Positions 5,301 through 45,780 of a DNA stretch of 64,000 nt are shown here, piece after piece. The stretch spans positions 6,109-70,108 of the IMG/VR virus record IMGVR_UViG_3300032373_000004. One strand, given 5' to 3'. A model generated the notes under the pieces. It had not been told where the DNA came from, did no database searches, and was given only the letters and a program-made list of their open reading frames with translations. Origin of the DNA: a virus. The position numbers and the translations under genes were made by a program. Position 1 is the first letter of the stretch. The number at the start of each line of letters is the position of its first letter.

Positions 5301-8241
5301 TAAAGATTCTATGTCTAAACTTCAATCTAATCCTGTAGGTGGATTATTTTCAGCAGTATGGGATGGGGCTGTAGAAACAGTTGCAAAATCAATAGAAGTT
5401 ACTGGAGATATTAAAGTAGCCATTGAAAAAGGTATTGAATATTTAAAAAATACTGACTGGTATAAAAATCTTTCGAATGAAGGTAAGCAAAGTGCTGAAA
5501 ATATATTTAGAAAAGATGCTTTCAATTCAGTTAATAAACCTGATACAGTTGGAAAAATTGATATTAAAGCAAAGACTAAATTAGGAGAAATTAAAGATGA
5601 TTTAACTAGTAAGTTAATTGATAAATATCATTTTATTAGAAAAGTTCAAAATCAATTAGAAACCATTCAAGGTAAACCATTAGATAAAGAAAGTAATTTC
5701 TCTCAAGCTGAGGTAGCTCTGTATGGTAAAGCATCTAATGATTTAGACATATTTGAAAAAGATATAAAAGAACTTGTGAAAAAAATAAGTAGTAAAAAAC
5801 TTAATCGTAAACAAGTTTCAAAATATTTATATGCTAAACACGCTGTTGAAAGAAATGCTTATGTTAAAGCTAATATAGACCCTAATACAGATAAGGGTTC
5901 TGGTATGACTGATAAAGAAGCCAAAGAGATATTAGATTTATTTACTGATGAACAATTAACTGATTTAAGAGACATATCTATAGATATCGAGGTGATATTA
6001 AATAAAACTCGTAAGAATTTAGTTAAGTTTGGATTAATGTCTCAAAAAGCTGTAGATGCTTTAGAGCAGCGTTATGAGAATTATGTTCCATTAACTAATT
6101 TTGCAGATGTAGATAAAGAAAGTAGTAATTTCATTGATACAGGAGGTAAAATTTCTATAAAAGGAAAAGAGTTTAGAAAAACTAAAGGGCGTTCATCAGA
6201 GGCTGGAGATGTTTTAGCTAATGTTTTATCACAACATCAAGAAATCATTGTAAGAGGTAGAAAAAATGAAGTAATGCAGTCTCTTTACAACATGGTTAAA
6301 GAGAACCCTGATAAAGAATTTTATAGAATATATTCTAGGAACAACCCTGATATGACGAGAGGTATCGGTGCTAATGGTCAAGTTACTCAAGTTAGACAAC
6401 CTATGGAAATGAATAATGATTATGTAGGTGTTAAAGTTGATGGAGAATCATTTTTTATTAAGTTTGCTAATAAAAGATTTGCTCATATACTAAATGCTTC
6501 TAATCTTGAAAAAACAAGGTTTATTGAAAGAACATTCGGTAGAGTTAATAGATATTTAAGTTCAATGTTAACATCATTAAATCCAGAATTCGTTCTATCT
6601 AATTTTTCAAGAGATATTCAAACGGCTGTGATTAATATGATGTCGGAATCAGATATATCGAATAACTCTGTTAAAGACACTAAGATTATAGGTAAAATTA
6701 TAAAATCGACTTTACCTTCTCTTAAAACAATATATAATTCTGAAACAGGTAAGAAGAAAGATACTGAATTAACTAAGTATTATAATGAGTTTAAAGAAGA
6801 TGGTGCTAAAACTGGATGGTTTTATGCTAAAAACACAGAGGATTTAAAAACTGATATAGATAATATTTTTAAATTACAAGACAGTAAGAAAATATCAGCA
6901 ACTAGAGCTAAGGCTGGGTTAAAATCAATATTGAATTATGTAGATAATGTAAATAGTTCAGTTGAAAACGCTGTTAGATTAGCTACATACACAGAAGCTA
7001 GAAAAACTGGTGTGACTAGAGAAGATGCAGCAACATTAGCTAAAGAGCTGACAGTTAACTTTAATAGAAGTGGTGAATGGGGAACGATAGCTAATTCGTT
7101 TTATCTATTCTTTAACGCATCTATTCAAGGTACAGCTAGATTTTGGAGAGCCATGGCTACACTTAAAAAAGTATATGATAGTGAAGGTAACATTACTGGT
7201 AGAAAGTTAAACGCTGGTCAAAAAGTAGCTATGGGAATAGTAGCCTTTTCATCATTAGCTACTATAATGAATCAAATGATGTCTGATGATGACGACGATG
7301 GTAGAAGTTTCTATAGTAAAATCCCTGATTATGAGAAGGAGAGAAATTTAATTATAATGAATCCTAATGGTAAAGATTATTTTAAAATACCTCTACCTTA
7401 TGGTTATAATATATTTCATAATTTAGGTAGTATTACAACAGAAGTATCTACAGGAGAAAGAAGTGTTGGAGATGGAGCAGGTTTTCTATTTAATAGTGCT
7501 GTTGGTGCATTCTCACCTGTTAGCTTTTCGAAATCAGATGATTTATCTGTACAAGGAGCTAAGGCTTTAGTTCCAACTGCTTTTAAACCTATTGTAGAAT
7601 TAGCTGTTAATGAGAATCATTTTGGAGCATCTATTTATAATGAAAATATGCCATTTGATAAAAGTCCTGAACCCGATTCAAATTTAGGTAGACCTAATAC
7701 GAATGCTATATTTAAAAATATGAGTAAATTCATGAATGAAGCTACTGGAGGTTCTGATTATGTTTCTGGAGGAATAGATGTTAATCCTAATACTTTAGAA
7801 TATTTAATGGAGTATTATAGTGGAGGATTAGGTAAGTTTGTAAATAGAACTGCTGCAACTATAAACACAGCTAAAGATAAAATAGAAGGTAAACCTGTAG
7901 ATTTCGAAATGAATAAAATTCCTTTTGTTAGAAAATTTGTTGGGGAGAAAAATAAATATGTCGATAAATCAGATTATTTTGAAGGTTCGACAGAAGTTAG
8001 ACAATTATATGAAGAATATAAAAATAATACTCCTGAGAATAGAAGAAAGGATAAATATAAAAGCGTAGCTCGATTAAAGAAAATGGCTGATGCTATTGAT
8101 AGAGACCTTAAAAAAATAAGGAAACAGAGAAAGAGATTAATGGAGAATAAATCAATTGCTAATCTAGTCAAGTTAAATGAGCTTGAAACCAAAGAGTTGA
8201 AGTTAATATCTAAATTCAACAGAGTTTATGCTGAAAAGTAA
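2344..8241 (+). CDS. giant 1965-aa protein, probable virion-associated (tape-measure/ejection-like) protein
   Basis: Uninterrupted 5.9-kb ORF; coiled-coil-like charged segments, Lys-rich low-complexity stretch (KKDSDKSKTKTNKGKVETKTNEK), Gly-rich segment; strong hairpin terminator immediately downstream. Confidence 0.55.
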   Translation: MEDEILDGITPAEFAAKIKAKYPQYKNIEDSILVDKMITKYPEYKGKINYDDPTKGGKAKTIKNGDSNSVLADTTSSLESTKTNKFRLPTDDEMNTFIDNGGVVTDSPMVKKVENIRKKIEAENATKKKQAAKELTDDIVLRTKYPELTTERDSLMKELKSRSVMNDNSDLEDRLSEIDKVLKSAPKSFRKIRKEKLDEIDSQMNQLERKGYALTGNSDFIDSSGTYQQLKKEREGVQYDIDKENETLNKLTEDTTITDQFIRFYTPKFLGNWLTPENETVKLDEKVEEKLLAELDSNKRLKSKVNLGGKNRNYLSLQDRENMIKSAKEQVLLDESKLIKQEYDEIIKDSQGLKPDSKEYFELQKRIEGLNERNNTLLFNYGYDKVNNQFNDVFKRTTRGKDYDEALGQGGLDVGSTFIESMTNTILDGTVGFAGWLGSLGDGFTDDDSYSIFDAMGDTAYELSNNNLLPSSKSDKGNIVDKDGNWNLSLYSVGKAGAEGLPFTLALINSARKGNVKEAYKKLGGLISPNRAKTISQSLQMADKAYRLTVSDNRKEALNNGLDGIQAIAYANFQSMATGLSQMIMPDTKFLKTPAGKAILGKFTNDLKTATTKEAISKASKAFIGNLARELGEEEIEGAMSEMIKFGMLQNHSNEFLTARYQKELIGKTLIVTGMVGGAGIKSNINATKDALYKDLNKNYDDLIVDIDNMMESSDDVTFKKILNNSKRLIGDIKDVTSKSPENVNGKQIDLLIEKKHLIQEMKSLDDSFHPEYKEKIENINEKIRKESSLKSEADKKDSDKSKTKTNKGKVETKTNEKVKYDVNEQLKSHNENEGSTFTLDGKNRSGEKGVSSVSIFPERSKIIDGSITEKDISDFKEVNKDILKGNEDVLAIGTWYDKSSGKTYLDVSAVTDTESATRLGEQYNQKAIFNLETFEEIDTKGDGKPVKNLKPELDRVSDIREVLKKSKGYKKIADEVRKVKINKSVKDSMSKLQSNPVGGLFSAVWDGAVETVAKSIEVTGDIKVAIEKGIEYLKNTDWYKNLSNEGKQSAENIFRKDAFNSVNKPDTVGKIDIKAKTKLGEIKDDLTSKLIDKYHFIRKVQNQLETIQGKPLDKESNFSQAEVALYGKASNDLDIFEKDIKELVKKISSKKLNRKQVSKYLYAKHAVERNAYVKANIDPNTDKGSGMTDKEAKEILDLFTDEQLTDLRDISIDIEVILNKTRKNLVKFGLMSQKAVDALEQRYENYVPLTNFADVDKESSNFIDTGGKISIKGKEFRKTKGRSSEAGDVLANVLSQHQEIIVRGRKNEVMQSLYNMVKENPDKEFYRIYSRNNPDMTRGIGANGQVTQVRQPMEMNNDYVGVKVDGESFFIKFANKRFAHILNASNLEKTRFIERTFGRVNRYLSSMLTSLNPEFVLSNFSRDIQTAVINMMSESDISNNSVKDTKIIGKIIKSTLPSLKTIYNSETGKKKDTELTKYYNEFKEDGAKTGWFYAKNTEDLKTDIDNIFKLQDSKKISATRAKAGLKSILNYVDNVNSSVENAVRLATYTEARKTGVTREDAATLAKELTVNFNRSGEWGTIANSFYLFFNASIQGTARFWRAMATLKKVYDSEGNITGRKLNAGQKVAMGIVAFSSLATIMNQMMSDDDDDGRSFYSKIPDYEKERNLIIMNPNGKDYFKIPLPYGYNIFHNLGSITTEVSTGERSVGDGAGFLFNSAVGAFSPVSFSKSDDLSVQGAKALVPTAFKPIVELAVNENHFGASIYNENMPFDKSPEPDSNLGRPNTNAIFKNMSKFMNEATGGSDYVSGGIDVNPNTLEYLMEYYSGGLGKFVNRTAATINTAKDKIEGKPVDFEMNKIPFVRKFVGEKNKYVDKSDYFEGSTEVRQLYEEYKNNTPENRRKDKYKSVARLKKMADAIDRDLKKIRKQRKRLMENKSIANLVKLNELETKELKLISKFNRVYAEK

Positions 8242-12655: not shown

Positions 12656-12914
12656 CTTTCGTTTTAATTTAATTGTTATTATTGTAAGTAAAAAATTTTA
12701 CATTATTAATGATATAAAAAGGGAGATTTCTCTCCCTAATTACAAAATTCCAAAAACTATGTTACTATCAACGGAAACATAACTCTTTTAAGATACTTGT
12801 TTTGTATAATTGATTTTAAGTCAATCGCCTTAACCACTTGGCAACAAAAGCATTATGGAGCTTTCGACAGGAATCGAACCTGCGTTTATAGTAGTTTTTG
12901 TAAGTATCTATTTG

Positions 12915-33321: not shown

Positions 33322-34833
33322 TTAATTGTTAATTTTATTAATTCTTTCTCTTATTTCAGTAAGAGTTGTTTGATTATGGAATGTTCCATTTTCAAATATT
33401 GTTTGCAAATAACCTAAATGTTCAATATTCCAAGGAATTTGGTCATATAGCTTATACTGTTCAGTATCTTTATCAAAATCAACTGATAATAAACCTTTAG
33501 CAGATTTTTTACTTCCATCAGATGTAATAGGGTCTTTAAAAATTTGTCTTCCAATAGATATAAAAGAACCTTCATTATCTCCTCCATCAATATTCTCTAA
33601 TATCTCAACATAGGTAGCTTTCATAGCGAACCCATGTGTATCTCTGGTAACATATTGATATGTAAAACTACCAATACCTAACACAATATTTGTAGAAGCA
33701 AAACCTTTATCTCTCAGTCTTCGTGTAATGTCTTTAGCTCTTTCAGGAGTTATAGAATCACCGTAAATTGCACCAATATGAGGGTCTAATACCTTATAAC
33801 CCTGTTCATTGATTGTTCCTCCAAATAAATCCCAAAGAACTTCAATGACTCCTTTACCAGAAGGTGATTCTGGAGATACAAATGAATCTACGTTATTTCC
33901 ACAAATAATATCGGCTGGGTCTCCAGAGTCAGGTCTTATTACTATCTTACCATCTCTGGCTAAAATTTCATCTTTAAGCACAGGTAAGTATTTAGTTAAT
34001 ACATCCCATAAATTCCAAGTATCGCTAACAATACTCAATATACCTGTAGGAAACTGCTTCATTAAATACCTAAATGTCTCAAGTTCACTATCATCACCTC
34101 CAGCACACATAACACTATGTTCAGTAGCGTTAACTGAACCTACTACAAATCCTTTCTCATCATAGTATTTACGAGCAGAAGCTATTGTAGGTAATGAATC
34201 ATCTCCTTTAAAAGATGTAGCATGACCTAATCCAGCATAAACTGTAGCATCAATACCTGCCATACCCCTCATCCCAAAATTATGTCCTTGGAAATCTACG
34301 AAGTCAATCGCTTGAGCATCTGTTTGAATACAAGCATCCGTTAAAATATCTTTATAATGATGAGCTGTAGTAGCTGCTGTCATAGGCATCCATAACATAT
34401 TAGAAATTAATGTTTCTAAAAAATTAGTTAACCAAAAGAAATCTGGGTCAGTATTATAAATAGTTAATACTGGTACACCATATGGTACAAATGTACCTTC
34501 TGGTAAAGCTTTAACTTTAATTGGTAAATGACCTAAATCATGTAACCTACCAATATGACTTACATCATAATCAGAATTTAAATATAATGAGTATTCATCT
34601 TTGATTTCAGTTAATACCTTAGTAAAATCTTTATTAAAAAATCCTTCATCAAACATTTCTTTAATTTGTCTCATTACCATTTGTTGACCAAACGATACTA
34701 CTCCTCTACCGCCTCTAACATTAGTATGTTTACCATGTCTAGGTGTAAAATTACTATACACAAGTGTTGTACCTTGTGGGTACATCATGTGATGACCTGT
34801 TTTATAACCATCGGTTATTAAGAATGGATTCAT
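33322..34833 (-). CDS. nadV: nicotinamide phosphoribosyltransferase family protein (NadV/NAMPT-like; possible Namat)
   Basis: Strong similarity to NadV throughout: DGYKTGHHMMYP, HDLGHLPIKVKALPEG, DFFWLTNFLETLIS. Confidence 0.9.
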   Translation of the reverse strand: MNPFLITDGYKTGHHMMYPQGTTLVYSNFTPRHGKHTNVRGGRGVVSFGQQMVMRQIKEMFDEGFFNKDFTKVLTEIKDEYSLYLNSDYDVSHIGRLHDLGHLPIKVKALPEGTFVPYGVPVLTIYNTDPDFFWLTNFLETLISNMLWMPMTAATTAHHYKDILTDACIQTDAQAIDFVDFQGHNFGMRGMAGIDATVYAGLGHATSFKGDDSLPTIASARKYYDEKGFVVGSVNATEHSVMCAGGDDSELETFRYLMKQFPTGILSIVSDTWNLWDVLTKYLPVLKDEILARDGKIVIRPDSGDPADIICGNNVDSFVSPESPSGKGVIEVLWDLFGGTINEQGYKVLDPHIGAIYGDSITPERAKDITRRLRDKGFASTNIVLGIGSFTYQYVTRDTHGFAMKATYVEILENIDGGDNEGSFISIGRQIFKDPITSDGSKKSAKGLLSVDFDKDTEQYKLYDQIPWNIEHLGYLQTIFENGTFHNQTTLTEIRERINKINN

Positions 34834-35240
34834 AAATTATAATTTTTAATTAATTCTTCTTCACTTTGAACCCAACAATCTTTATTATTAGGTTTCTCAT
34901 CACCGTTATAACAAATATAAGAAGGTTTATTAACTTGATAATTAACTACTCCATCTAAAGTTTGCAAACTTACTAATCTTGTATCAGTTATATATTCACC
35001 TATCCATATAGGTAATTTTTGATAACCTTTATCATCTGAAATCCATCCTACAGGAGAAGTTAGATTATCATTAGGTTGTACACCATGAGTAATAATACCT
35101 GCATCATCATGTTTAAGATATGCTCCATTTGGAAATTCCTGTACATTACCTTCTCCCCATTCTTCACTTTTATCAATAGTGACAGGACTAGGACAAAATG
35201 AGAAATTTACATTTCTTTGCTGACTTGTTATTTTTCTCAT
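34830..35240 (-). CDS. hypothetical protein (136 aa)
   Basis: ORF overlapping neighbours by 4 nt. Confidence 0.45.
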   Translation of the reverse strand: MRKITSQQRNVNFSFCPSPVTIDKSEEWGEGNVQEFPNGAYLKHDDAGIITHGVQPNDNLTSPVGWISDDKGYQKLPIWIGEYITDTRLVSLQTLDGVVNYQVNKPSYICYNGDEKPNNKDCWVQSEEELIKNYNL

Positions 35241-35602
35241 GATTTAATACCTTTAATGTATCTACTAGGGTTGTTACTAATTCTTCTTTCCCAAACCTCA
35301 GCTATACCTTTAAATACTCTATTCGTTAAATAATTAACTCCTATGATATCACTAGTTAAATTAGCTTTTGAATCTGCTCTACCTGATGAAATTTTCTCAG
35401 CTAATTCTTGATTAAAAGTATCTTCTTTCACTTTAACAGAATACCCTACTGATACATCTGATGCTGAATGAATAGGTTCTTTCTTAACAAAACTAAAACA
35501 TCCTGTTTCAATATCGTAATAATCTTTTGTTGTTTTTACACATAGTGTAATTTGTCTTTCACCTAATTCAAAAGTGTGAAAAACTGGTTTTTGCTTACTC
35601 AT
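35237..35602 (-). CDS. hypothetical protein (121 aa)
   Basis: ORF. Confidence 0.45.
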   Translation of the reverse strand: MSKQKPVFHTFELGERQITLCVKTTKDYYDIETGCFSFVKKEPIHSASDVSVGYSVKVKEDTFNQELAEKISSGRADSKANLTSDIIGVNYLTNRVFKGIAEVWERRISNNPSRYIKGIKS

Positions 35603-35621
35603 AATATATTGATTTTAATTA

Positions 35622-36410
35622 TTAATTTCTTCCTTTTTCTTCTGGATATAATTCTGTTAACAAATCTGATTGCCAAAACTGTTTAGTGTCTATATCCATA
35701 ATTGTTAATTTACCTTCAAAACCTCCTCCAGTATCTAAATTCCACACATTACTTCTATTCATAGGAACAATTATATTCCCCTGCTTAGGCTGTGTTTTAA
35801 TTTTATATTCTGGATAATGAGGTTTTATTTTCCAATTACCTGTTGAGGTATGACCAATGTAAATCTCTTTATGTTTCTCAAATCTTCTTGATTGAGGTGT
35901 TCCTCCTTCATGAATTCTACCATGAGATAGTAAAGCTAATTGCCATAAATCTCTATCCCAATAATAATCAGATTGATAATGTTCATGACCTAATCCTTTA
36001 CGTGAATGAAATCCACCATGTACAAATCCTCTATTATAATCATCTACATAGAAATTTAAAAGATTCTTAAAGAAAGTCCTATGTTCTTCAACAACTAATA
36101 ATCCTGAATTTACATAAGAATTAATTGTTGATTGACCTCCCTGTTGTGTCCACATTAAAGGTGCTTGACCGTATACTAACCAATCCTCACACCATTTATC
36201 ATGATTTCCTCGTAAGAATATAGGCGTGATAGTGGTATTATCCCTTATTTGGATAAGTTCTTCGATAACTTCTGCCGACTCTCCCCATCCGTCTACATAA
36301 TCTCCTAAAAAAATTAATTGGTCATTCGATGCGTTATATTCACATCTCTCTAAGATTTGTCTTAATGCCCTTAGTCCACCATGTATGTCACCTATTACTA
36401 ATGTTCTCAT
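35622..36410 (-). CDS. calcineurin-like metallophosphoesterase (PPP/ApaH-type)
   Basis: GDIHG, GDYVDGW, GNHD motifs. Confidence 0.75.
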   Translation of the reverse strand: MRTLVIGDIHGGLRALRQILERCEYNASNDQLIFLGDYVDGWGESAEVIEELIQIRDNTTITPIFLRGNHDKWCEDWLVYGQAPLMWTQQGGQSTINSYVNSGLLVVEEHRTFFKNLLNFYVDDYNRGFVHGGFHSRKGLGHEHYQSDYYWDRDLWQLALLSHGRIHEGGTPQSRRFEKHKEIYIGHTSTGNWKIKPHYPEYKIKTQPKQGNIIVPMNRSNVWNLDTGGGFEGKLTIMDIDTKQFWQSDLLTELYPEEKGRN

Positions 36411-36412
36411 AA

Positions 36413-37240
36413 TTAATAAAATAATTGTACAACTTCTAAATTAGTTGGATTATACATTGCTCCTCCTTCTGTGTCAGCCCAATATTCTTTAAATTTACTA
36501 TTAGTAGTAAATACTTTATCGAAATAATTAGTAATAGGGTCTATACCTAAATTCTGAACAGTCATATGACTAACCATTAAGTATAACTTACCACAGTTCC
36601 TTTCTCTCAATAATTTAGCTAACCCTTTAAATGTACCTCCATAAACACTTATATCGTCTACAATAAGTATATCTTTCCCTCCAAAATCTTCCCTATCTAC
36701 AATTTGTGATAGTGATGATTTTCCATTATCATACTGCCTAGCTTTAGATGCTGAATATGTTTCACCTCTCCACCCTATTTTATCAGATAACTTCATTAAA
36801 GGTTTGAATCCACCTGCATCAGAAGACATAAGTATCATGTCATTTACTGGAGATAATTTTCTTAAAACTTCATCTATAAGAATACTATTATCAATAATAT
36901 CTACACCTGTAAATAAAGACTCCACTACTTCTGGATTATGAGGATGGAATATACTCATTGAAATATTATATCCATCAACATATGTATCTAAAATTCTAGC
37001 TAATGTAAGTAAACCAGAAGATTGAAATTCATTAAATCTTTTGTCTGCTTGAGCATCAAGAAGACAAGGTATTGTTATATGTGCTTTAACTCTGTTATGA
37101 ATTAACACATCACAAAGTTGAGCTAAATGTATAACGCTTTTATAATCATTAATTCTAAAAGTAATCTCTTGAGTTGTGTTTTCCCATTCTTCTGGGATAG
37201 TAATATAACTCGTTCCGTCTGGATATTCATTTATCTTCAT
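36413..37240 (-). CDS. ribose-phosphate pyrophosphokinase (Prs)-like PRTase protein (possible ADP-ribose pyrophosphate synthetase, Adps-like)
   Basis: PRPP-binding loop ILIVDDISVYGGT; Prs-like segments PCLLDAQADKRF and MSSDAGGF; shorter (275 aa) than cellular Prs. Confidence 0.6.
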   Translation of the reverse strand: MKINEYPDGTSYITIPEEWENTTQEITFRINDYKSVIHLAQLCDVLIHNRVKAHITIPCLLDAQADKRFNEFQSSGLLTLARILDTYVDGYNISMSIFHPHNPEVVESLFTGVDIIDNSILIDEVLRKLSPVNDMILMSSDAGGFKPLMKLSDKIGWRGETYSASKARQYDNGKSSLSQIVDREDFGGKDILIVDDISVYGGTFKGLAKLLRERNCGKLYLMVSHMTVQNLGIDPITNYFDKVFTTNSKFKEYWADTEGGAMYNPTNLEVVQLFY

Positions 37241-37422
37241 ATACCTGCTCTTAGTTTAAACAATCTATGTAATCCTAATATTTGATAATACCCTTTAGTA
37301 CTACCTTGTACTCTTACAACTGATTTAATATTTAATGCTCTACGTTTCTTCTGTAGATTTTTTCTGGATTCACTCCAGAAATTTCTTTGACTTCTTTCTG
37401 TTTGATACATATATGTTTTCAA
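37237..37422 (-). CDS. hypothetical small protein (likely starts at internal ATG 37410)
   Basis: ORF; TATATTTG-type box 24 nt upstream of 37410. Confidence 0.3.
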   Translation of the reverse strand: MKTYMYQTERSQRNFWSESRKNLQKKRRALNIKSVVRVQGSTKGYYQILGLHRLFKLRAGI

Positions 37423-37433
37423 TTTATTTTATG

Positions 37434-37441
37434 CAAATATA
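37434..37441 (-). promoter_or_regulatory. putative -7 promoter box
   Basis: caaatata on + strand (rc TATATTTG) upstream of 37237-37410 gene. Confidence 0.35.
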
Positions 37442-37474
37442 TATAATAATTTTTATATTCGCAAGTTTTTTTCG

Positions 37475-37684
37475 CTAAATTATTTCTTCAAAACTACAGA
37501 AAGATTTACGAACTGTTAGTTCTTCTCCTTTCCTTTTAGAATTTTCAGGTAACATTGTTCTGGTTGCACCATTTAATATCTCACCTGTTACCCAAGTATC
37601 TCCTGATACATCCGTCATCCTCATTGTAAATATCCCTTTACGAGAATGGTTTATTTTATAAACTTTGTTTTTTTCTAACACCAT
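37475..37684 (-). CDS. hypothetical small protein
   Basis: 69-aa ORF. Confidence 0.3.
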   Translation of the reverse strand: MVLEKNKVYKINHSRKGIFTMRMTDVSGDTWVTGEILNGATRTMLPENSKRKGEELTVRKSFCSFEEII

Positions 37685-37700
37685 GTTATATTTTTTTAAA

Positions 37701-38981
37701 TTATTTACCTCCTATTTTTACCCACATATCTTCAATACGTTGTTCAAATTCTTCTTCTGTTTCATCATGTTTAATTTCAGGCATACCTACTCTCGAACCG
37801 AAAGTGTAAGAATATTCTAACATACATTTTACTGACGGTATCATTCTTTTACCTCCATCAACATAAGTATGTCCATCTAATATACAATCTTGTAAAATCT
37901 TAGGAGTTACAGGAATTACTTCATTAGGAAACATTCTTATCGTACCTTTATCTGTTTGAAATTCAACTGTTGGTATACCATTAAACTTATCATCAATTTT
38001 TAAAGTACACGTACCTATTTCAGCTACACTTGTAGTAACAGTTGTATTAGGATTTTTAACAATCATAAACAAAGCTGTTTCATCATATTCAAAAGCTCTA
38101 ACTAATCTTTCAACTTTTTCATAAGTCGCTTCTTGAACATAATCTGTAAGATGACCCATACCCATATATGTACCTATATTATCTTTCATGTCAGATATCA
38201 TCTGATGTACTTGTCTCCAACTTTTAAGATTTACAAACTTTATATCTTCTGGAGTTAGATTACCTCCTTTACCTAGTCTATAATATACATATCTATCATC
38301 ATCTTCATCATAATAAAGATGATACATTTTAGCAATATCTTCATGCGTTATAGATTCATCAAATATAGCTTTTCTTTTATTCTCTTGAGAGACATCTGTT
38401 AAATCCATTGATAATAAAGAAAATGATAGTGATTCAAATTGTTTTTGATTATCAAGGTAAACTAAATTAGTATCTAAACCTTTAGATTTAGGAACAGATA
38501 ATAATTTTTTATATCTATATTCTAATTCATTATCTTCAACCATGTTTTCAATAATACCTAACACAGTTATACCTTTCTCCTCAAAGAAAGGAACAGTTCT
38601 TTCCACATCTGCTTTAGATAATTCACTTGGTTGACTAACTAATATTGCAGCACTTATTTTCAATTTCTTAATTAAAGCTAAATGAATATCTGTAATACTT
38701 GGTGGTGTATCAATTAATAATATATCTGGATTAACATCCTTAATTTTAGTAACTGACTCTCTCAAAAATAAATTAATCGTCGCTTTATCAAGGAACAACC
38801 CTGTATAATCATGATTAGATATTAAATCTTCACTAATTAAATGGTGCATTGAAGGAGTATTTAAGTCCATATCTAACACCATAACCTTCTTACCTGATTC
38901 TTTAAAAGCTCTATATAAACAATAAGTTGTAGTAGATTTACCTACTCCACCTTTACCTGAATAAGTTAAAAATGATTTCAT
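37701..38981 (-). CDS. ParA/MinD/Mrp-family P-loop ATPase with about 250-aa C-terminal extension
   Basis: Deviant Walker A SGKGGVGKSTT at residues 8-18, VLDMDLNTPS; C-terminal half without recognisable motif. Confidence 0.65.
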   Translation of the reverse strand: MKSFLTYSGKGGVGKSTTTYCLYRAFKESGKKVMVLDMDLNTPSMHHLISEDLISNHDYTGLFLDKATINLFLRESVTKIKDVNPDILLIDTPPSITDIHLALIKKLKISAAILVSQPSELSKADVERTVPFFEEKGITVLGIIENMVEDNELEYRYKKLLSVPKSKGLDTNLVYLDNQKQFESLSFSLLSMDLTDVSQENKRKAIFDESITHEDIAKMYHLYYDEDDDRYVYYRLGKGGNLTPEDIKFVNLKSWRQVHQMISDMKDNIGTYMGMGHLTDYVQEATYEKVERLVRAFEYDETALFMIVKNPNTTVTTSVAEIGTCTLKIDDKFNGIPTVEFQTDKGTIRMFPNEVIPVTPKILQDCILDGHTYVDGGKRMIPSVKCMLEYSYTFGSRVGMPEIKHDETEEEFEQRIEDMWVKIGGK

Positions 38982-39187
38982 ATCTCAAAATGTTTATTTA
39001 ATTGTTTAATTACATAATACTGTAAGTTTGCTAACCTACCTATACCCACAACATTGAATATCCAATGGGAAAATACTTCCCTGAATTGCTCAAATGATAG
39101 TGATATTTTACCTCCCATAATAGTATAATAAAAGAAATATACTTCCATCATATCTGTACTAGGGTCTTGAAACTGTTCTTTTGTCAT
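38978..39187 (-). CDS. hypothetical small protein
   Basis: 69-aa ORF overlapping neighbours by 4 nt. Confidence 0.3.
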   Translation of the reverse strand: MTKEQFQDPSTDMMEVYFFYYTIMGGKISLSFEQFREVFSHWIFNVVGIGRLANLQYYVIKQLNKHFEI

Positions 39188-39621
39188 AATTTCCTTTCAT
39201 AATATTTCAAATACACATAAGACTTATGATACTTTTTAATTCTCTCAAAATCTTTATCTCTAAGTCCTTTTAATCTAGTAATATCAGAATTATCTTCTAA
39301 GTCTGCTAACTTAACCAATATAGCATTAGTATTCATTGAAATACTGTGAATATATTGTTCATAATTCATTTCATTTGGGTCATGAGTTAATAATCTTAAA
39401 GCTGTTACAACTCTATCTGAAAAACCACTTTTAATAAGGTCTTCAAATTCCCATTTAGTATCTTCAACAAGGTCGTGCATAACTGCTATACATCTTAATT
39501 CTTCATCATTTTTAGGCATTTTATCCATGACTCTCAAACAATGTAAAATGTACGGATTACCACCTTTGTCTTTTTTACCTTCGAAGGCTTGTGCTACAAT
39601 TGATATTGCTCTACTTAACAT
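39184..39621 (-). CDS. HD-domain SpoT/MESH1-like small alarmone hydrolase
   Basis: HCLRV (His), IAVMHDLVEDT matching the SpoT hydrolase motif AAxLHDxxEDT; 145 aa. Confidence 0.7.
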   Translation of the reverse strand: MLSRAISIVAQAFEGKKDKGGNPYILHCLRVMDKMPKNDEELRCIAVMHDLVEDTKWEFEDLIKSGFSDRVVTALRLLTHDPNEMNYEQYIHSISMNTNAILVKLADLEDNSDITRLKGLRDKDFERIKKYHKSYVYLKYYERKL

Positions 39622-39628
39622 ACTTTAT

Positions 39629-40069
39629 CTATTTATAAGTTAGAAATAATACTTTAATTAATTTATTAGCTGAAAAAACTTCATTCAAAGCTTTTAATCT
39701 ATGGTTACCATCAATAACAATATAATTACCATTATCATTAAATACCTTAATTCTTTTGTAATTATCAGGGTCTTGTTTTAAATCATTTATTAATTTATCA
39801 ACCCAATCAGGATAATTAATTTCATGAGAATAATTTATATCTCCTAATTTCATTTCAATTTTACGAGCTGATAGTTTACCTTTAGATAAAATATCCCTAA
39901 GATGTTTAATATCTTTACGATATGATTTCTTATAATAAAATTTAGCTATTGATTTCCATTTACCCATCATAGCTTCTTGAAATATTATCATAATAGTCCA
40001 ACGAGTCTTTCTAAATCTGATTTTCTTACCTGACGGAAAGAAAAAATCATAAACTTTTTGTTTTTTCAT
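39629..40069 (-). CDS. ParB/sulfiredoxin-like nuclease (NTP-binding) domain protein
   Basis: YIVIDGNHRLKAL (GxxR box of ParB N-domain). Confidence 0.55.
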   Translation of the reverse strand: MKKQKVYDFFFPSGKKIRFRKTRWTIMIIFQEAMMGKWKSIAKFYYKKSYRKDIKHLRDILSKGKLSARKIEMKLGDINYSHEINYPDWVDKLINDLKQDPDNYKRIKVFNDNGNYIVIDGNHRLKALNEVFSANKLIKVLFLTYK

Positions 40070-41003: not shown

Positions 41004-42467
41004 CTAATCAAATTTAACATGATAAATAGCATTAGCAGGTGTCATATAATTAATTTCATTAGGGTCATCAGGAACTAAATATCCTTTATCATCTTCATGT
41101 AAATCATGAAGATTACAAGGTATGATTGTAGTCTTAATTTCCTTAACATCACAACTATGCTCTTTCATAAAATCTGCTATAATAACAGCAAATTGTTTAC
41201 TCATTACCTCACATGATAACATCGGATTATCTTTAATATGAGCTAATATTTTATCATGTAATAGCCAATGGTCAATGATAAAACCTTCATCATTTAATTT
41301 ATAACCGCATAATATTTCGGCTTGGTAATTGTAAGCTTCGTGACCTTCAACATTACATTGTGTTTCAGTATGATTTTCTGTTTGGAAAAAACCTCTTCGA
41401 TTTAATGTAATTAATTCTGTAACAGAATCTTCAAAATTATATGATTTGATAATTTTTTCAGATTCATCATATAAATCATAACCTTTAAAATATTCTTTAA
41501 AAGATATTGGATTATATTCTGATTTATTACGACTGAAAAATTCAAAACTACTAAATGAGTTTCTAGGACTATCGTAGAACGTAAATCCTTGTTTAGAATA
41601 CTCTCGCTCCCAAGGAGTGTTATCATATAATTCTGTATTATTTATTTTAAAAGGGAAATCTAAACTGAATAATAATTTAGCTTCTTCTTTAGTATCACAT
41701 ATAATAGTGATACTATCGTCTTTTAATTTTTGAAGTTTTTTCTTCAAACCTTTTTTCTTCTTAGGATATGTATTAAAGAATAATGTATAATTTCTATCTT
41801 CTAAAACACTTCTCCAAAAAGCATGACCTTCAATTGTATCAAGCCATGTAAAACCACCTCCACCATCATCTGCCCCTCTTCTACTCTCTTCAAAAATGCT
41901 AATGTTTTCAGGATTACCTTGTTCAACTTGACGTTTTAGTAATAACTTTACTACTTCTTTAGGTGTGTTTTTAAGATATCCTTTAAACTTTGATTTAGTT
42001 TTAGATATTTTATCAAAGAATAAATTAAAATTCTCATTTATTATAACATCTTCCCAAAAATCATTACCTTCTTTAGTTTTTTCCCACTTGAATCCTCCAT
42101 CATCAACGGATGCGTGTCTATCGTTTTCAAACACTTTAACATTTTTAGGGTTACCGTCTTTTACTTGACGTTTAAGCATTTCTTTAACAATTCGTTTTGG
42201 AAACCCTTTAATATCACCTTTATATTTAGATTTAGTTTTCTTAGGGTATTTTTCAAAAAACCTATCGAAATTTCTATCAATTAAAACAGTAGACCAAAAA
42301 CCATGACCTTCTTTTGTATCACTCCACCCAAAACCATTCCCTAAAGAACTTGCTGATATATGGTCTTCAAAAACAGATACGTCTTCATTGTTACCTTGTT
42401 TAACCTGATGTTTTAAAATTGCTTTTACGATTTCTTTTGGGAAACCTTTTAATTTTCCTTTGTACAT
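41004..42467 (-). CDS. protein with three tandem about 80-aa repeats plus about 240-aa C-terminal domain
   Basis: Repeat unit GFPKxIVKxxLKxQVxxGNxxNVxVFExxxxAxxDxGGFxWxxTxEGxxFWxxVxxxxNFxxFF occurs 3 times (residues about 3-75, 84-160, 164-245). Confidence 0.6.
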   Translation of the reverse strand: MYKGKLKGFPKEIVKAILKHQVKQGNNEDVSVFEDHISASSLGNGFGWSDTKEGHGFWSTVLIDRNFDRFFEKYPKKTKSKYKGDIKGFPKRIVKEMLKRQVKDGNPKNVKVFENDRHASVDDGGFKWEKTKEGNDFWEDVIINENFNLFFDKISKTKSKFKGYLKNTPKEVVKLLLKRQVEQGNPENISIFEESRRGADDGGGGFTWLDTIEGHAFWRSVLEDRNYTLFFNTYPKKKKGLKKKLQKLKDDSITIICDTKEEAKLLFSLDFPFKINNTELYDNTPWEREYSKQGFTFYDSPRNSFSSFEFFSRNKSEYNPISFKEYFKGYDLYDESEKIIKSYNFEDSVTELITLNRRGFFQTENHTETQCNVEGHEAYNYQAEILCGYKLNDEGFIIDHWLLHDKILAHIKDNPMLSCEVMSKQFAVIIADFMKEHSCDVKEIKTTIIPCNLHDLHEDDKGYLVPDDPNEINYMTPANAIYHVKFD

Positions 42468-43335: not shown

Positions 43336-43979
43336 GATTGATAATTTTAGTCAGTAGTGTGTGTATTGCTCACATCAATAAGTCATTCTTACACTACTGT
43401 TTCTGTGTTTTAATTTTATTGTAAAGACTATTACTCTACTTCTTTAATACTTGTACTCACATACCTATATCGGATTTCTAATTACCCATATTTAAGGATT
43501 AGGCAAATTATACTTGTATCAACGCATTTGCTACGCTATTAGCTCTCTATGGTTTTGCTAACACTACCCCTATTTTAAACTGTTTGGTCAGTACTGTTTG
43601 ACGTTACAAAGATAAAGTCTATTATTGAGATACACAAGTGAAAAGTAAAATATTTTACGTTTAATAGTAAAAAAAGTCTTTGTTGCTTACTTATTACCTT
43701 GTTTAACCATACTGCATAGCGTAACGTGCTAACAACTAGTGTACATAACTTGGCAAAGTACTTTTTATAGTATTCTACTTTTCTACTGTATATTTCAAAG
43801 AACTAAACTTTATGTTTAACTTCGGTACAAAGATATAACGAGTTTTTGAATCTCACAAGAGAAAAGTGAAAAACTTTTATTTTGTTATGTTATATAATGT
43901 ATTAAAATTAAAGAACTTGCCTAACTCATCAGTGTATTCTTAAAGGCTGAATACAGACAGGTTGTTACACCTGTTTCGT

Positions 43980-44158: not shown

Positions 44159-44235
44159 AATATGTTATTTTAATCTCACAAGACATTTTTGCATTATTTT
44201 AATAAAAAAGGGGCTTTTAAACCCCTTTAATAACA

Positions 44236-44436: not shown

Positions 44437-45780
44437 AATATAATGTTTAAGTTATTACTGATACAAATGTATGTATAATAATTGTGTCGTGCAAGTGACA
44501 ATTTGTCAGTGCATGGTGAAGTCAGTGGTAGTGGGATGTTGAGGTGTTAAATAAATTATTATATGTCATGATGTCATGAATAATATGTGTATTTAAATAG
44601 CTGATTATAACATACAGACCTTAATCGCTCGTCCTCCCTGAGTAAAAAACTATTCAATAAATATAATTAGCCTCATAACATTATAGTAACAACTGATTCT
44701 AAAATGTTAGCTTTTCCTTTTTATATATCATACGTACAATTTTAAACCTTCTGATAATCAACAGTTTAAAATAGCTTTGTAAATTATTAGATAATGTTTA
44801 CACCACAAATAAAAGTCTGAATTTATCCCTTAAAAGTTCAATCGTAGACCCCACCACCCCAAAATAAAAATGGATTTCCTTTCAGGTCTCAGGGGGGTCT
44901 ATTCAACTATAGACCCTAAAGCCTCTTTTTGATTTAATTTTTTTGAAAAAATTTTATAAAAAAAATATGGAGCATTAGAATCATAACTAACACTCCATTT
45001 AAGCATCACAGAACGTGATTTAAGGAAAGAAAAAATAAATCTGGGTATATCATACCACAAAGTCTTTTAAAACGTCTTAAAACGGCAATTTTAAAAACCC
45101 TTATTAGACCATAAATTTATCTCATAAAAAATCCCACTGAACAAATGGGATGTAGGGCAAAGATAATAAAAAAATGCTTATATATTAAGTATTAATATAT
45201 AAATTAATATTTAATTAGTTATAATTAAGAAGTTATAATGTAATAAAGTAGATATTGTTTAATAAACTTAAATATCTAATAAGAAGTAGTAGGTTTTCTT
45301 TGCTTCTTTCTTTTGGTTTTCTCTCTTCACAAAGTTACACTTTTTTATTGAATAATGATTTATAAGATATTTGATTAATAATCAATGGTTTAATCAAAAA
45401 CACATCATTTTTACCAAGTAAAATATTTTACAAAAAAGTCAGATAAATAATTTTAATAATACTATATATAAAAACTATAATTTAACCATGAACTATAAAA
45501 ATAATCTATAGTATATTAAAAACATCAATAAAATCAACACTTCACCACATAACAACATATATGGTCAGTAAAAATATTTACATTTTCTTTGGTCAGTAAA
45601 ATATTTTACATTATCTTTACACCAGAATTAAAAATCAAAATAAAATATGAATCTAACAACATTACAATATATAACATTATTCTTCTGGTCAATATTTAGT
45701 CCAACTAAATATAATCAGTATGAATACTACCTGAATATAGGATTACAAGCTAAATATGCTTTCGAAAAAGCTCAAGAATC

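Follow-up and report, generated by a model that had tools for sequence, protein, structure and literature searches.

Predicted alarmone hydrolase, mini ParB/sulfiredoxin-fold protein and Mrp-like ATPase of a phage: probable separate accessory genes and not one partition machine

An intriguing question is raised by a phage locus in which genes for a ParA-like ATPase, an alarmone hydrolase and a ParB-like protein lie close together; namely, whether they form a single partition-like machine or are separate accessory genes that happen to be neighbours. The locus is part of a 64,000-nucleotide stretch of viral DNA (IMG/VR record IMGVR_UViG_3300032373_000004, positions 6,109 to 70,108), which is referred to here as the window. 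The three minus-strand genes encode a 426-amino-acid (aa) ATPase with a deviant Walker A motif, a 145-aa HD-domain protein and a 146-aa ParB-like protein (Table 1). A first-pass annotation of the sequence suggested that they could be a ParA/ParB pair that has recruited an alarmone hydrolase, or alternatively that the hydrolase acts against alarmone-synthetase toxins. The family calls of all three proteins hold. In our assessment the genes are probably separate accessory genes within a counter-defence island (a hydrolase directed against (p)ppApp, a mini-ParB protein and a partnerless ATPase) and not components of one machine.

The HD protein aligns from end to end with a known enzyme. Residues 2–141 of its 145 match residues 8–144 of the 149 in Protein Data Bank (PDB) entry 7SMG, a '(p)ppApp hydrolase' (E = 1.2e-26, HMMER), and it also matches phrog_990 (E = 1e-49) and the RelA/SpoT hydrolase superfamily model TIGR00691 (E = 4e-11). 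The 7SMG protein is Aph1, adenosine 3'-pyrophosphohydrolase 1 of a Bacteroides caccae prophage (PMC10083569). In the study of Aph1, six residues (D24, R96, D116, R119, K133 and Y134) form a signature that separates ppApp from ppGpp hydrolases; Aph1 itself had no detectable activity on ppGpp, a D24R/R119A variant gained it, and of 12 purified Aph1 homologues all hydrolysed ppApp and 2 showed modest ppGpp activity (PMC10083569). Five of the six signature residues are kept in the HD protein (D18, D113, R116, K130 and Y131), including all five near the active site and the equivalents of D24 and R119, which set specificity for ppApp over ppGpp. The metal-binding and catalytic residues of RelA/SpoT-type hydrolases are likewise present at the aligned positions (H27, H49-D50, E53-D54, D107 and N111), their roles being taken from established knowledge of these hydrolases and from PMC10083569.

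Homologues of the HD protein occur in 282 phage records; one of them, gp220 of Salmonella phage PVP-SE1, has 51% identity across 94% of the query. In published experiments, each of the five toxic alarmone synthetases tried (CapRel, PhRel, PhRel2, FaRel and FaRel2; PMC7229694 Table 1) was neutralised by the stand-alone hydrolase of PVP-SE1, and Jimmy et al. proposed that phage hydrolases bypass alarmone-based abortive infection (PMC7229694). With Aph1 and the PbcSpo-type phage hydrolases such as that of PVP-SE1, the HD protein shares a single HD domain of about 145 aa, the H/HD/D ligands and the ED dyad, and it is phage-encoded and stands alone. From these alignments we infer that the protein adds one more member to the known Aph1 family of small alarmone hydrolases, with predicted (p)ppApp 3'-pyrophosphohydrolase activity. 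Its setting differs from that of Aph1: the HD gene adjoins neither a MuF-Apk toxin gene nor a Tis1-like immunity gene, and it is linked to an NAD+-reconstitution operon (NARP1, comprising Adps and Namat) in an apparently lytic-type phage. The homology to Aph1 and the PVP-SE1 hydrolase, together with the stable place of the gene beside the NARP1 operon, supports the alternative offered by the first-pass annotation, in which the hydrolase counters alarmone-synthetase toxins.

The arrangement of the genes in the window says little about whether they work together. The open reading frames (ORFs), their coordinates and the quoted motifs are as first described (SGKGGVGKST at residues 8–17 of the ATPase, IAVMHDLVEDT at residues 45–55 of the HD protein and GNHRLKA at residues 121–127 of the 146-aa protein), but the genes are not strictly consecutive, as had been claimed. 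Between the HD and ATPase genes lies orf69, which overlaps the HD stop codon by 4 nucleotides and the ATPase start codon by another 4, and which we regard as a real gene because it has five other homologues, all metagenomic, with 63–72% identity. No intrinsic terminator is predicted on the minus strand between positions 44207 and 33000; the three genes therefore fall within one long leftward transcription unit together with more than 20 others, so that adjacency by itself carries little meaning.

Gene order in related phages separates the three genes. In the window, the order is an SLT-like gene, the ParB-like gene, the HD gene, orf69, the ATPase gene, one or more small ORFs, Adps, a metallophosphoesterase gene, two small ORFs and Namat. 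The closest relative (L105; ATPase 87% identical) has SLT, HD, orf69, ATPase, Adps and metallophosphoesterase genes, at which point the contig ends, and the next (L003; 61% identical) has SLT, HD, an unrelated 144-aa gene, orf68, ATPase, Adps, metallophosphoesterase and Namat; both are without the ParB-like gene. Three further relatives (L106–L108) have SLT, HD, a 159-aa gene, orf68, a 57-aa ORF and Adps, with neither the ParB-like gene nor the ATPase gene, and one of them (L106) also keeps the metallophosphoesterase and Namat genes. The stable core of this lineage is therefore the HD gene, orf69 and the NARP1 block, into which the ParB-like and ATPase genes are separately dispensable inserts. 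More widely, 81 loci with ATPase homologues contain an HD gene within 10 kb in only one case (L003, a close relative) and a ParB-like gene in none, and the loci of the ParB-like family have neither an ATPase nor an HD gene within 10 kb. No neighbour is common to more than 3 of the 16 non-redundant ATPase groups, and the small ORFs directly upstream of the ATPase homologues are mutually unrelated. Thus the three genes do not co-occur in related phages, a finding that the first-pass annotation had itself named as one that would speak against its proposal.

The 146-aa protein is small for a ParB relative. An AlphaFold model built on the family alignment is confident (predicted local distance difference test (pLDDT) score of 90.7) and shows a minimal ParB/sulfiredoxin (Srx) fold, in support of the earlier suggestion of a nucleoside triphosphate-binding ParB/Srx-like protein. 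The core of about 80 residues (approximately 66–145) carries the motifs SHEINYP and DGNHR, both invariant among 37 sequences; the latter (D120-G-N-H-R124) is a Box II-like GxxR phosphate-binding motif that aligns with IDGVHR of SbnI, and the glutamate aligned with SbnI Glu20 varies within the family. The preceding 65 or so residues form three basic helices with a net charge of +16 (+18 for the whole protein). Sequence matches are marginal and all lie over the DGNHR segment (GmrSD_N, 0.0054; phrog_1033, 0.003; PD-Lambda-5_A, 4e-4); GmrSD_N is the only Pfam match, and PF02195 (ParBc) does not match at E ≤ 0.1. The family consists of 37 metagenomic proteins without a Pfam domain, and we found no member in cultured phages.

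Very short single-domain phage proteins with the ParB-CTPase fold have already been recognised and likened to sulfiredoxin (PMC12704722). The 146-aa protein resembles these, sulfiredoxin and the free serine kinases SerK/SbnI in its core of about 80 residues and DGxHR motif, and in being short, phage-encoded and without a ParA partner; it differs in escaping PF02195 and in adding the highly basic three-helix N terminus. The predicted structure contains no helix-turn-helix (HTH) or dimerisation domain, and none of the 37 family members has the ParA-binding motif [LFI]G[KR]G[LFI] as defined in a 2025 survey of the ParB-CTPase fold (PMC12704722). This is not a centromere-binding ParB. Separately, three of nine loci place a Prs-like or NAMPT-like gene no more than 10 kb from the mini ParB/Srx gene (L015/L091, 5105-6837; L092, 9983-12775; window, 33322-40069), a weak link with NAD-salvage genes. 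The protein could be an accessory nucleotide-handling enzyme of NAD+-reconstitution islands, which is a weaker variant of the host-takeover idea considered below for the ATPase.

The ATPase was described at first as ParA/MinD-like, with about 170 residues of P-loop domain followed by an uncharacterised domain. The deviant Walker A ATPase and the extra domain are both there, with the boundary near residue 205 and not 170, and the protein is nearer to Mrp/NBP35/ApbC than to plasmid ParA. Among Pfam families it matches PF10609 (NUBPL/Mrp iron-transfer P-loop NTPase) best, at 104 bits and above the gathering score; in NCBIfam, partition ParA (42 bits) ranks behind MrpORP (81 bits) and ApbC (68 bits), and all of these scores are far under the curated cut-offs, which are 450 bits for MrpORP and 348 bits for ApbC. 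The AlphaFold model is confident (pLDDT 90.9, with the C-terminal domain mostly above 85), and 69 homologues show no variation at the catalytic and dimer-forming residues, including K10 and K15. The CxxC motif that supplies the bridging cysteines of an Fe–S cluster after the ENM strand is absent, none of the four cysteines is conserved, and one homologue (L006) has no cysteine at all. The ATPase therefore cannot be a classical Fe–S carrier, as it is without cysteine ligands. It shares with Mrp/NBP35/ApbC and MinD (SIMIBI class) an Mrp-type P-loop domain with a deviant Walker A motif, and it differs in having no CxxC, conserved cysteine, DUF59 or DUF971 and in adding an acidic C-terminal domain of about 220 aa seen only in its phage family. 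Its sequence places it in the Mrp/NBP35–MinD clade as a partnerless member.

The C-terminal domain has a net charge of -14 (family median, -11). Its profile retrieved nothing below E = 0.35 from PDB sequences, and a Pfam scan of the domain in 16 members gave nothing consistent. Searched against 1.84 billion representative sequences, a hidden Markov model (HMM) of the domain matched almost only positions ~200–420 of proteins of about 400–440 aa; matches to giant cadherin/Big-repeat proteins were rejected as a short β-hairpin similarity multiplied by the number of repeats. A Foldseek comparison with BFVD returned weak matches to P-loop kinases only, and PADLOC defence models returned only weak partial matches to the P-loop and the ParB core. 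More than 1,000 proteins belong to the family. The two-domain protein occurs in none of 72,556 plasmid records and in seven Bacteroides/Phocaeicola phage records, where it is annotated as 'ParA-like partition protein'. LoVEphage-type genomes encode an integrase and a CI-like repressor beside the ATPase homologue and therefore look integrative; we rejected the possibility that the downstream 'integrase' is a mis-annotated radical SAM gene, as it is a real tyrosine-recombinase-like gene. Distant ATPase homologues occupy accessory regions with Gad1, Gad2, AcrVA2-like and Tad2-like genes. On a tentative reading that we would not put ahead of other possibilities, the two-domain ATPase may represent a new phage-specific class, a self-contained ATP-switch effector for host takeover or counter-defence; its occurrence by itself in such regions, beside these genes and NARP1 genes, is compatible with this idea. 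Nothing speaks in favour of a role of the ATPase in DNA partition.

We acknowledge that some observations weigh against the picture of separate accessory genes with a hydrolase directed at (p)ppApp. The co-occurrence look-ups covered between 6 and 10 kb on either side of a gene. An ATPase gene and a ParB-like gene stand about 8 kb apart on one distant phage contig (JAWVHB010000272.1), and the opposite net charges of the ATPase C-terminal domain and the ParB-like protein (-14 and +18) would permit interaction; given this joint presence and these charges, a loose functional link between the two proteins is possible. In the HD protein, R96 of Aph1 is replaced by S93, and the Pfam HD_4 score falls just under the threshold (25.7 versus 27.2 bits). 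That gp220 is the PVP-SE1 hydrolase tried against the toxic synthetases is our assumption only.

The shared contig and the opposite charges also belong to the case for a true ParA/ParB-type system, in which the ATPase would be the motor of partition or positioning, the mini ParB/Srx protein its adaptor and a nearby repeat the centromere of a prophage maintained like a plasmid. As in the type I systems (P1, TP228 and actinobacteriophage parABS), an operon here encodes both a deviant Walker A ATPase, complete with the signature lysine, and a ParB/Srx-fold protein, two genes upstream. A candidate repeat exists as well: the perfect 14-nucleotide palindrome GTAAAATATTTTAC has three exact copies (0.15 expected) in a divergent intergenic control region 3.6–5.5 kb upstream of the genes, adjoining the gene for a small serine recombinase of 235 aa, and one further copy with a single mismatch far from there, at 12688-12701. 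It is the only significant repeat, and its sites look like putative operators for a phage regulator. Beside the genes themselves, where the first-pass annotation had proposed looking for centromere-like repeats, no array was found within or flanking 37.4–40.7 kb, and direct, inverted and tandem repeats are at chance level. Unlike the type I adaptors, the window protein is without a DNA-binding domain, a ParA-binding motif or an adjacent centromere; the pair is split by two genes and is not co-inherited, the closest relatives that keep the ATPase having no ParB-like gene and L106 having no ATPase; and the ATPase family is absent from plasmids, with its nearest sequence relatives among Mrp/ApbC and not the partition ParA proteins. 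The synteny largely refutes the partition reading, the absence of an HTH or dimerisation domain, of the ParA-binding motif and of repeats argues in the same direction, and we consider it highly improbable that these genes are a partition system that has recruited an alarmone hydrolase.

Other roles can be imagined for the HD protein and the ATPase individually. The HD protein could confer immunity to a (p)ppApp-synthetase toxin of the MuF-Apk2 type made by the phage itself. Aph1 holds this very role in its prophage (PMC10083569), and a MuF-RelA_SpoT phage toxin of pneumococcus is paired with an immunity gene for a hydrolase, but only 0.4% of Aph homologues are near MuF genes (PMC10083569). Scans of about 40 window ORFs against Pfam and PHROGs revealed no RelA/SpoT synthetase or MuF domain, the small ORFs and about 12 kb of the 76.6-kb contig lying outside the scan, and the HD gene sits in an early accessory region beside NARP1 and not by head-morphogenesis genes; a role in self-immunity thus appears quite unlikely. 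The HD protein might instead mainly degrade host (p)ppGpp, lifting the stringent response and keeping host metabolism running. It belongs to the RelA/SpoT hydrolase superfamily, many of its homologues carry the annotation ppGpp pyrophosphohydrolase, and 2 of the 12 Aph homologues mentioned above had some activity of this kind; set against this are the conservation of the two positions whose mutation conferred ppGpp activity on Aph1 and the failure of Aph1 itself to hydrolyse ppGpp detectably, and we regard (p)ppGpp as an unlikely main substrate. For the ATPase, the ancestry shared with Mrp, NBP35 and HypB suggests delivery of a cofactor or metal to phage metalloenzymes, the closest families being Fe–S carriers and Ni-insertion ATPases. 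A radical SAM gene is found no more than two genes away from the homologue in 10 of 87 loci, which fall into three divergent groups (BS-TP1-like Bacteroides phages and two others only), and some of the homologues beside such genes carry a cysteine-rich segment, 'CG..NCG.VENMC'. However, the window ATPase and its near relatives have neither those cysteines nor CxxC, no radical SAM homologue is present in the window and no neighbour is conserved across the family, and metal delivery is a quite unlikely function for the window protein. The cysteine-rich segment and the radical SAM neighbour in relatives hint at an ancestral cofactor-related role that is not possible for the window ATPase. In detail, the radical SAM genes (~270 aa, Cx3Cx2C) are found in L001, L055, L058, L060, L063, L068, L069, L072, L074 and L081, and the segment is present in the ATPases of L001, L058 and L069 and also in those of L002, L009 and L089, which are without a radical SAM neighbour.

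Table 1 Coordinates of features in the window
Feature	Position	Strand	Basis or match
Mini ParB/sulfiredoxin-fold protein, 146 aa	39629..40069	-	ORF list, predicted structure
Aph1-type small alarmone hydrolase (HD domain), 145 aa	39184..39621	-	7SMG and phrog_990 matches
orf69, 69 aa, function not assigned	38978..39187	-	Conserved homologues
ATPase, 426 aa, whole ORF	37701..38981	-	Motif and Pfam PF10609
ATPase N-terminal domain, residues ~1-205, Mrp/NBP35-MinD-clade deviant Walker A P-loop with signature lysine	38367..38981	-	
ATPase C-terminal domain, residues ~206-426, acidic alpha/beta, family-specific	37701..38366	-	
NARP1-like NAD+-reconstitution block	33322..37240	-	Directly downstream, same transcription direction
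Adps-like (PRPS-like)	36413-37240	-	phrog_619, 1e-32
Calcineurin-like metallophosphoesterase	35622-36410	-	PF00149, 3e-16
Namat-like	33322-34833	-	Namat structures 9W5X/9W5W, E 6e-138
SLT-like protein, 140 aa	40130-40552	-	Weak SLT (lytic transglycosylase) match
487-aa ORF	41004-42467	-	PHROGs of unknown function
Polyvalent protein, 1965 aa	2344-8241	+	LPD38 domain, weak DarB-like antirestriction PHROG match
Serine recombinase, 235 aa	45781-46488		
Palindrome, exact copies	43645-43658, 45418-45431, 45596-45609		
Palindrome, one-mismatch copy	12688-12701		

The NARP1 pathway consists of Adps and Namat, and the extended form, NARP1-AP, adds the Macro-domain phosphatase Adpp. The window block has a candidate for each of the first two: a PRPS-like Adps and a Namat-like protein that matches the crystal structures of phage Namat far better than true NAMPT (6e-62). 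They are four genes apart, with the metallophosphoesterase gene and two small ORFs between them. As this phosphatase is calcineurin-like and stands where NARP1-AP has the Macro-domain Adpp, the window block may be a NARP1-AP variant in which another phosphatase fills this place. Synteny of the block with the HD gene extends to Namat in L003 and L106, and to the metallophosphoesterase, the last gene reached, in L105. The adjacent NARP1 operon and the company of Gad1, Gad2, AcrVA2-like and Tad2-like genes kept by distant ATPase homologues support the view that the region is a counter-defence and accessory island in which genes are gained and lost singly. A gene-replacement hotspot lies between the HD gene and orf69; this slot is empty in the window and L105 and occupied by the unrelated 144-aa gene in L003 (7361-7795) and by a Metallophos_2-like gene, the 159-aa gene noted above, in L106–L108 (L106, 7519-7998).

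The window as a whole is phage DNA of about 30% G+C, encoding a terminase, a DNA polymerase, a primase-polymerase, a class II ribonucleotide reductase and a GroEL-like chaperonin. A nucleotide comparison with 50,697 phage records brought up no relative. A Bacteroidota-type promoter motif has 6 matches against 2.07 expected, a number reached in 1 of 100 shuffles, and this result does not assign the host. Upstream of the ParB-like gene, the SLT-like protein has an N terminus resembling a signal peptide, and in relatives with DNA reaching that far (L003, L105, L106 and L107) its gene is directly upstream of the HD gene. The 487-aa ORF contains three internal repeats of about 80 aa (240-nucleotide spacing), and shorter versions of it are present in L003 and L105. 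The 1965-aa polyvalent protein is probably carried in the virion and injected, and may have an anti-restriction role.

We propose that the three genes were acquired separately and may be expressed from the long leftward early transcription unit of a large phage, directly upstream of the NARP1 operon. The H...HD...D metal site and the ED dyad of the HD protein would remove the 3'-pyrophosphate from (p)ppApp produced by toxic small alarmone synthetases (toxSAS) of the host or by secreted-toxin enzymes, and the enzyme may also act, as other phage small alarmone hydrolases do, on the 3'-pyrophosphorylated products of toxic alarmone synthetases. It would thereby cancel the growth arrest or ATP depletion imposed by host toxSAS or (p)ppApp-synthetase toxins, restoring ATP pools and translation during infection. 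The 146-aa protein may bind a nucleotide and probably also, through its charge, either nucleic acid or an acidic partner. The ATPase would form an ATP-dependent sandwich dimer by means of its signature lysine, and dimerisation may regulate binding by the acidic C-terminal domain, which would serve as a built-in adaptor.

The HD gene by itself adds little that is new, since stand-alone phage alarmone hydrolases and the Aph1 family have already been described and in part tested. What is new is its company: in the lineage of the window it stays linked to a NARP1 NAD+-reconstitution operon, in keeping with the idea of counter-defence islands. The labels 'ParA/ParB' at this locus, and 'ParA-like partition protein' in GenBank for the homologues in Bacteroides phages, are no evidence for partition or for a plasmid lifestyle. 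Two well-folded, conserved families are uncharacterised, chiefly that of the ATPase, whose acidic C-terminal domain is confined to phages, and secondarily that of the mini ParB/Srx protein, with its 37 members; both are reasonable candidates for screens of anti-defence or host-takeover functions.

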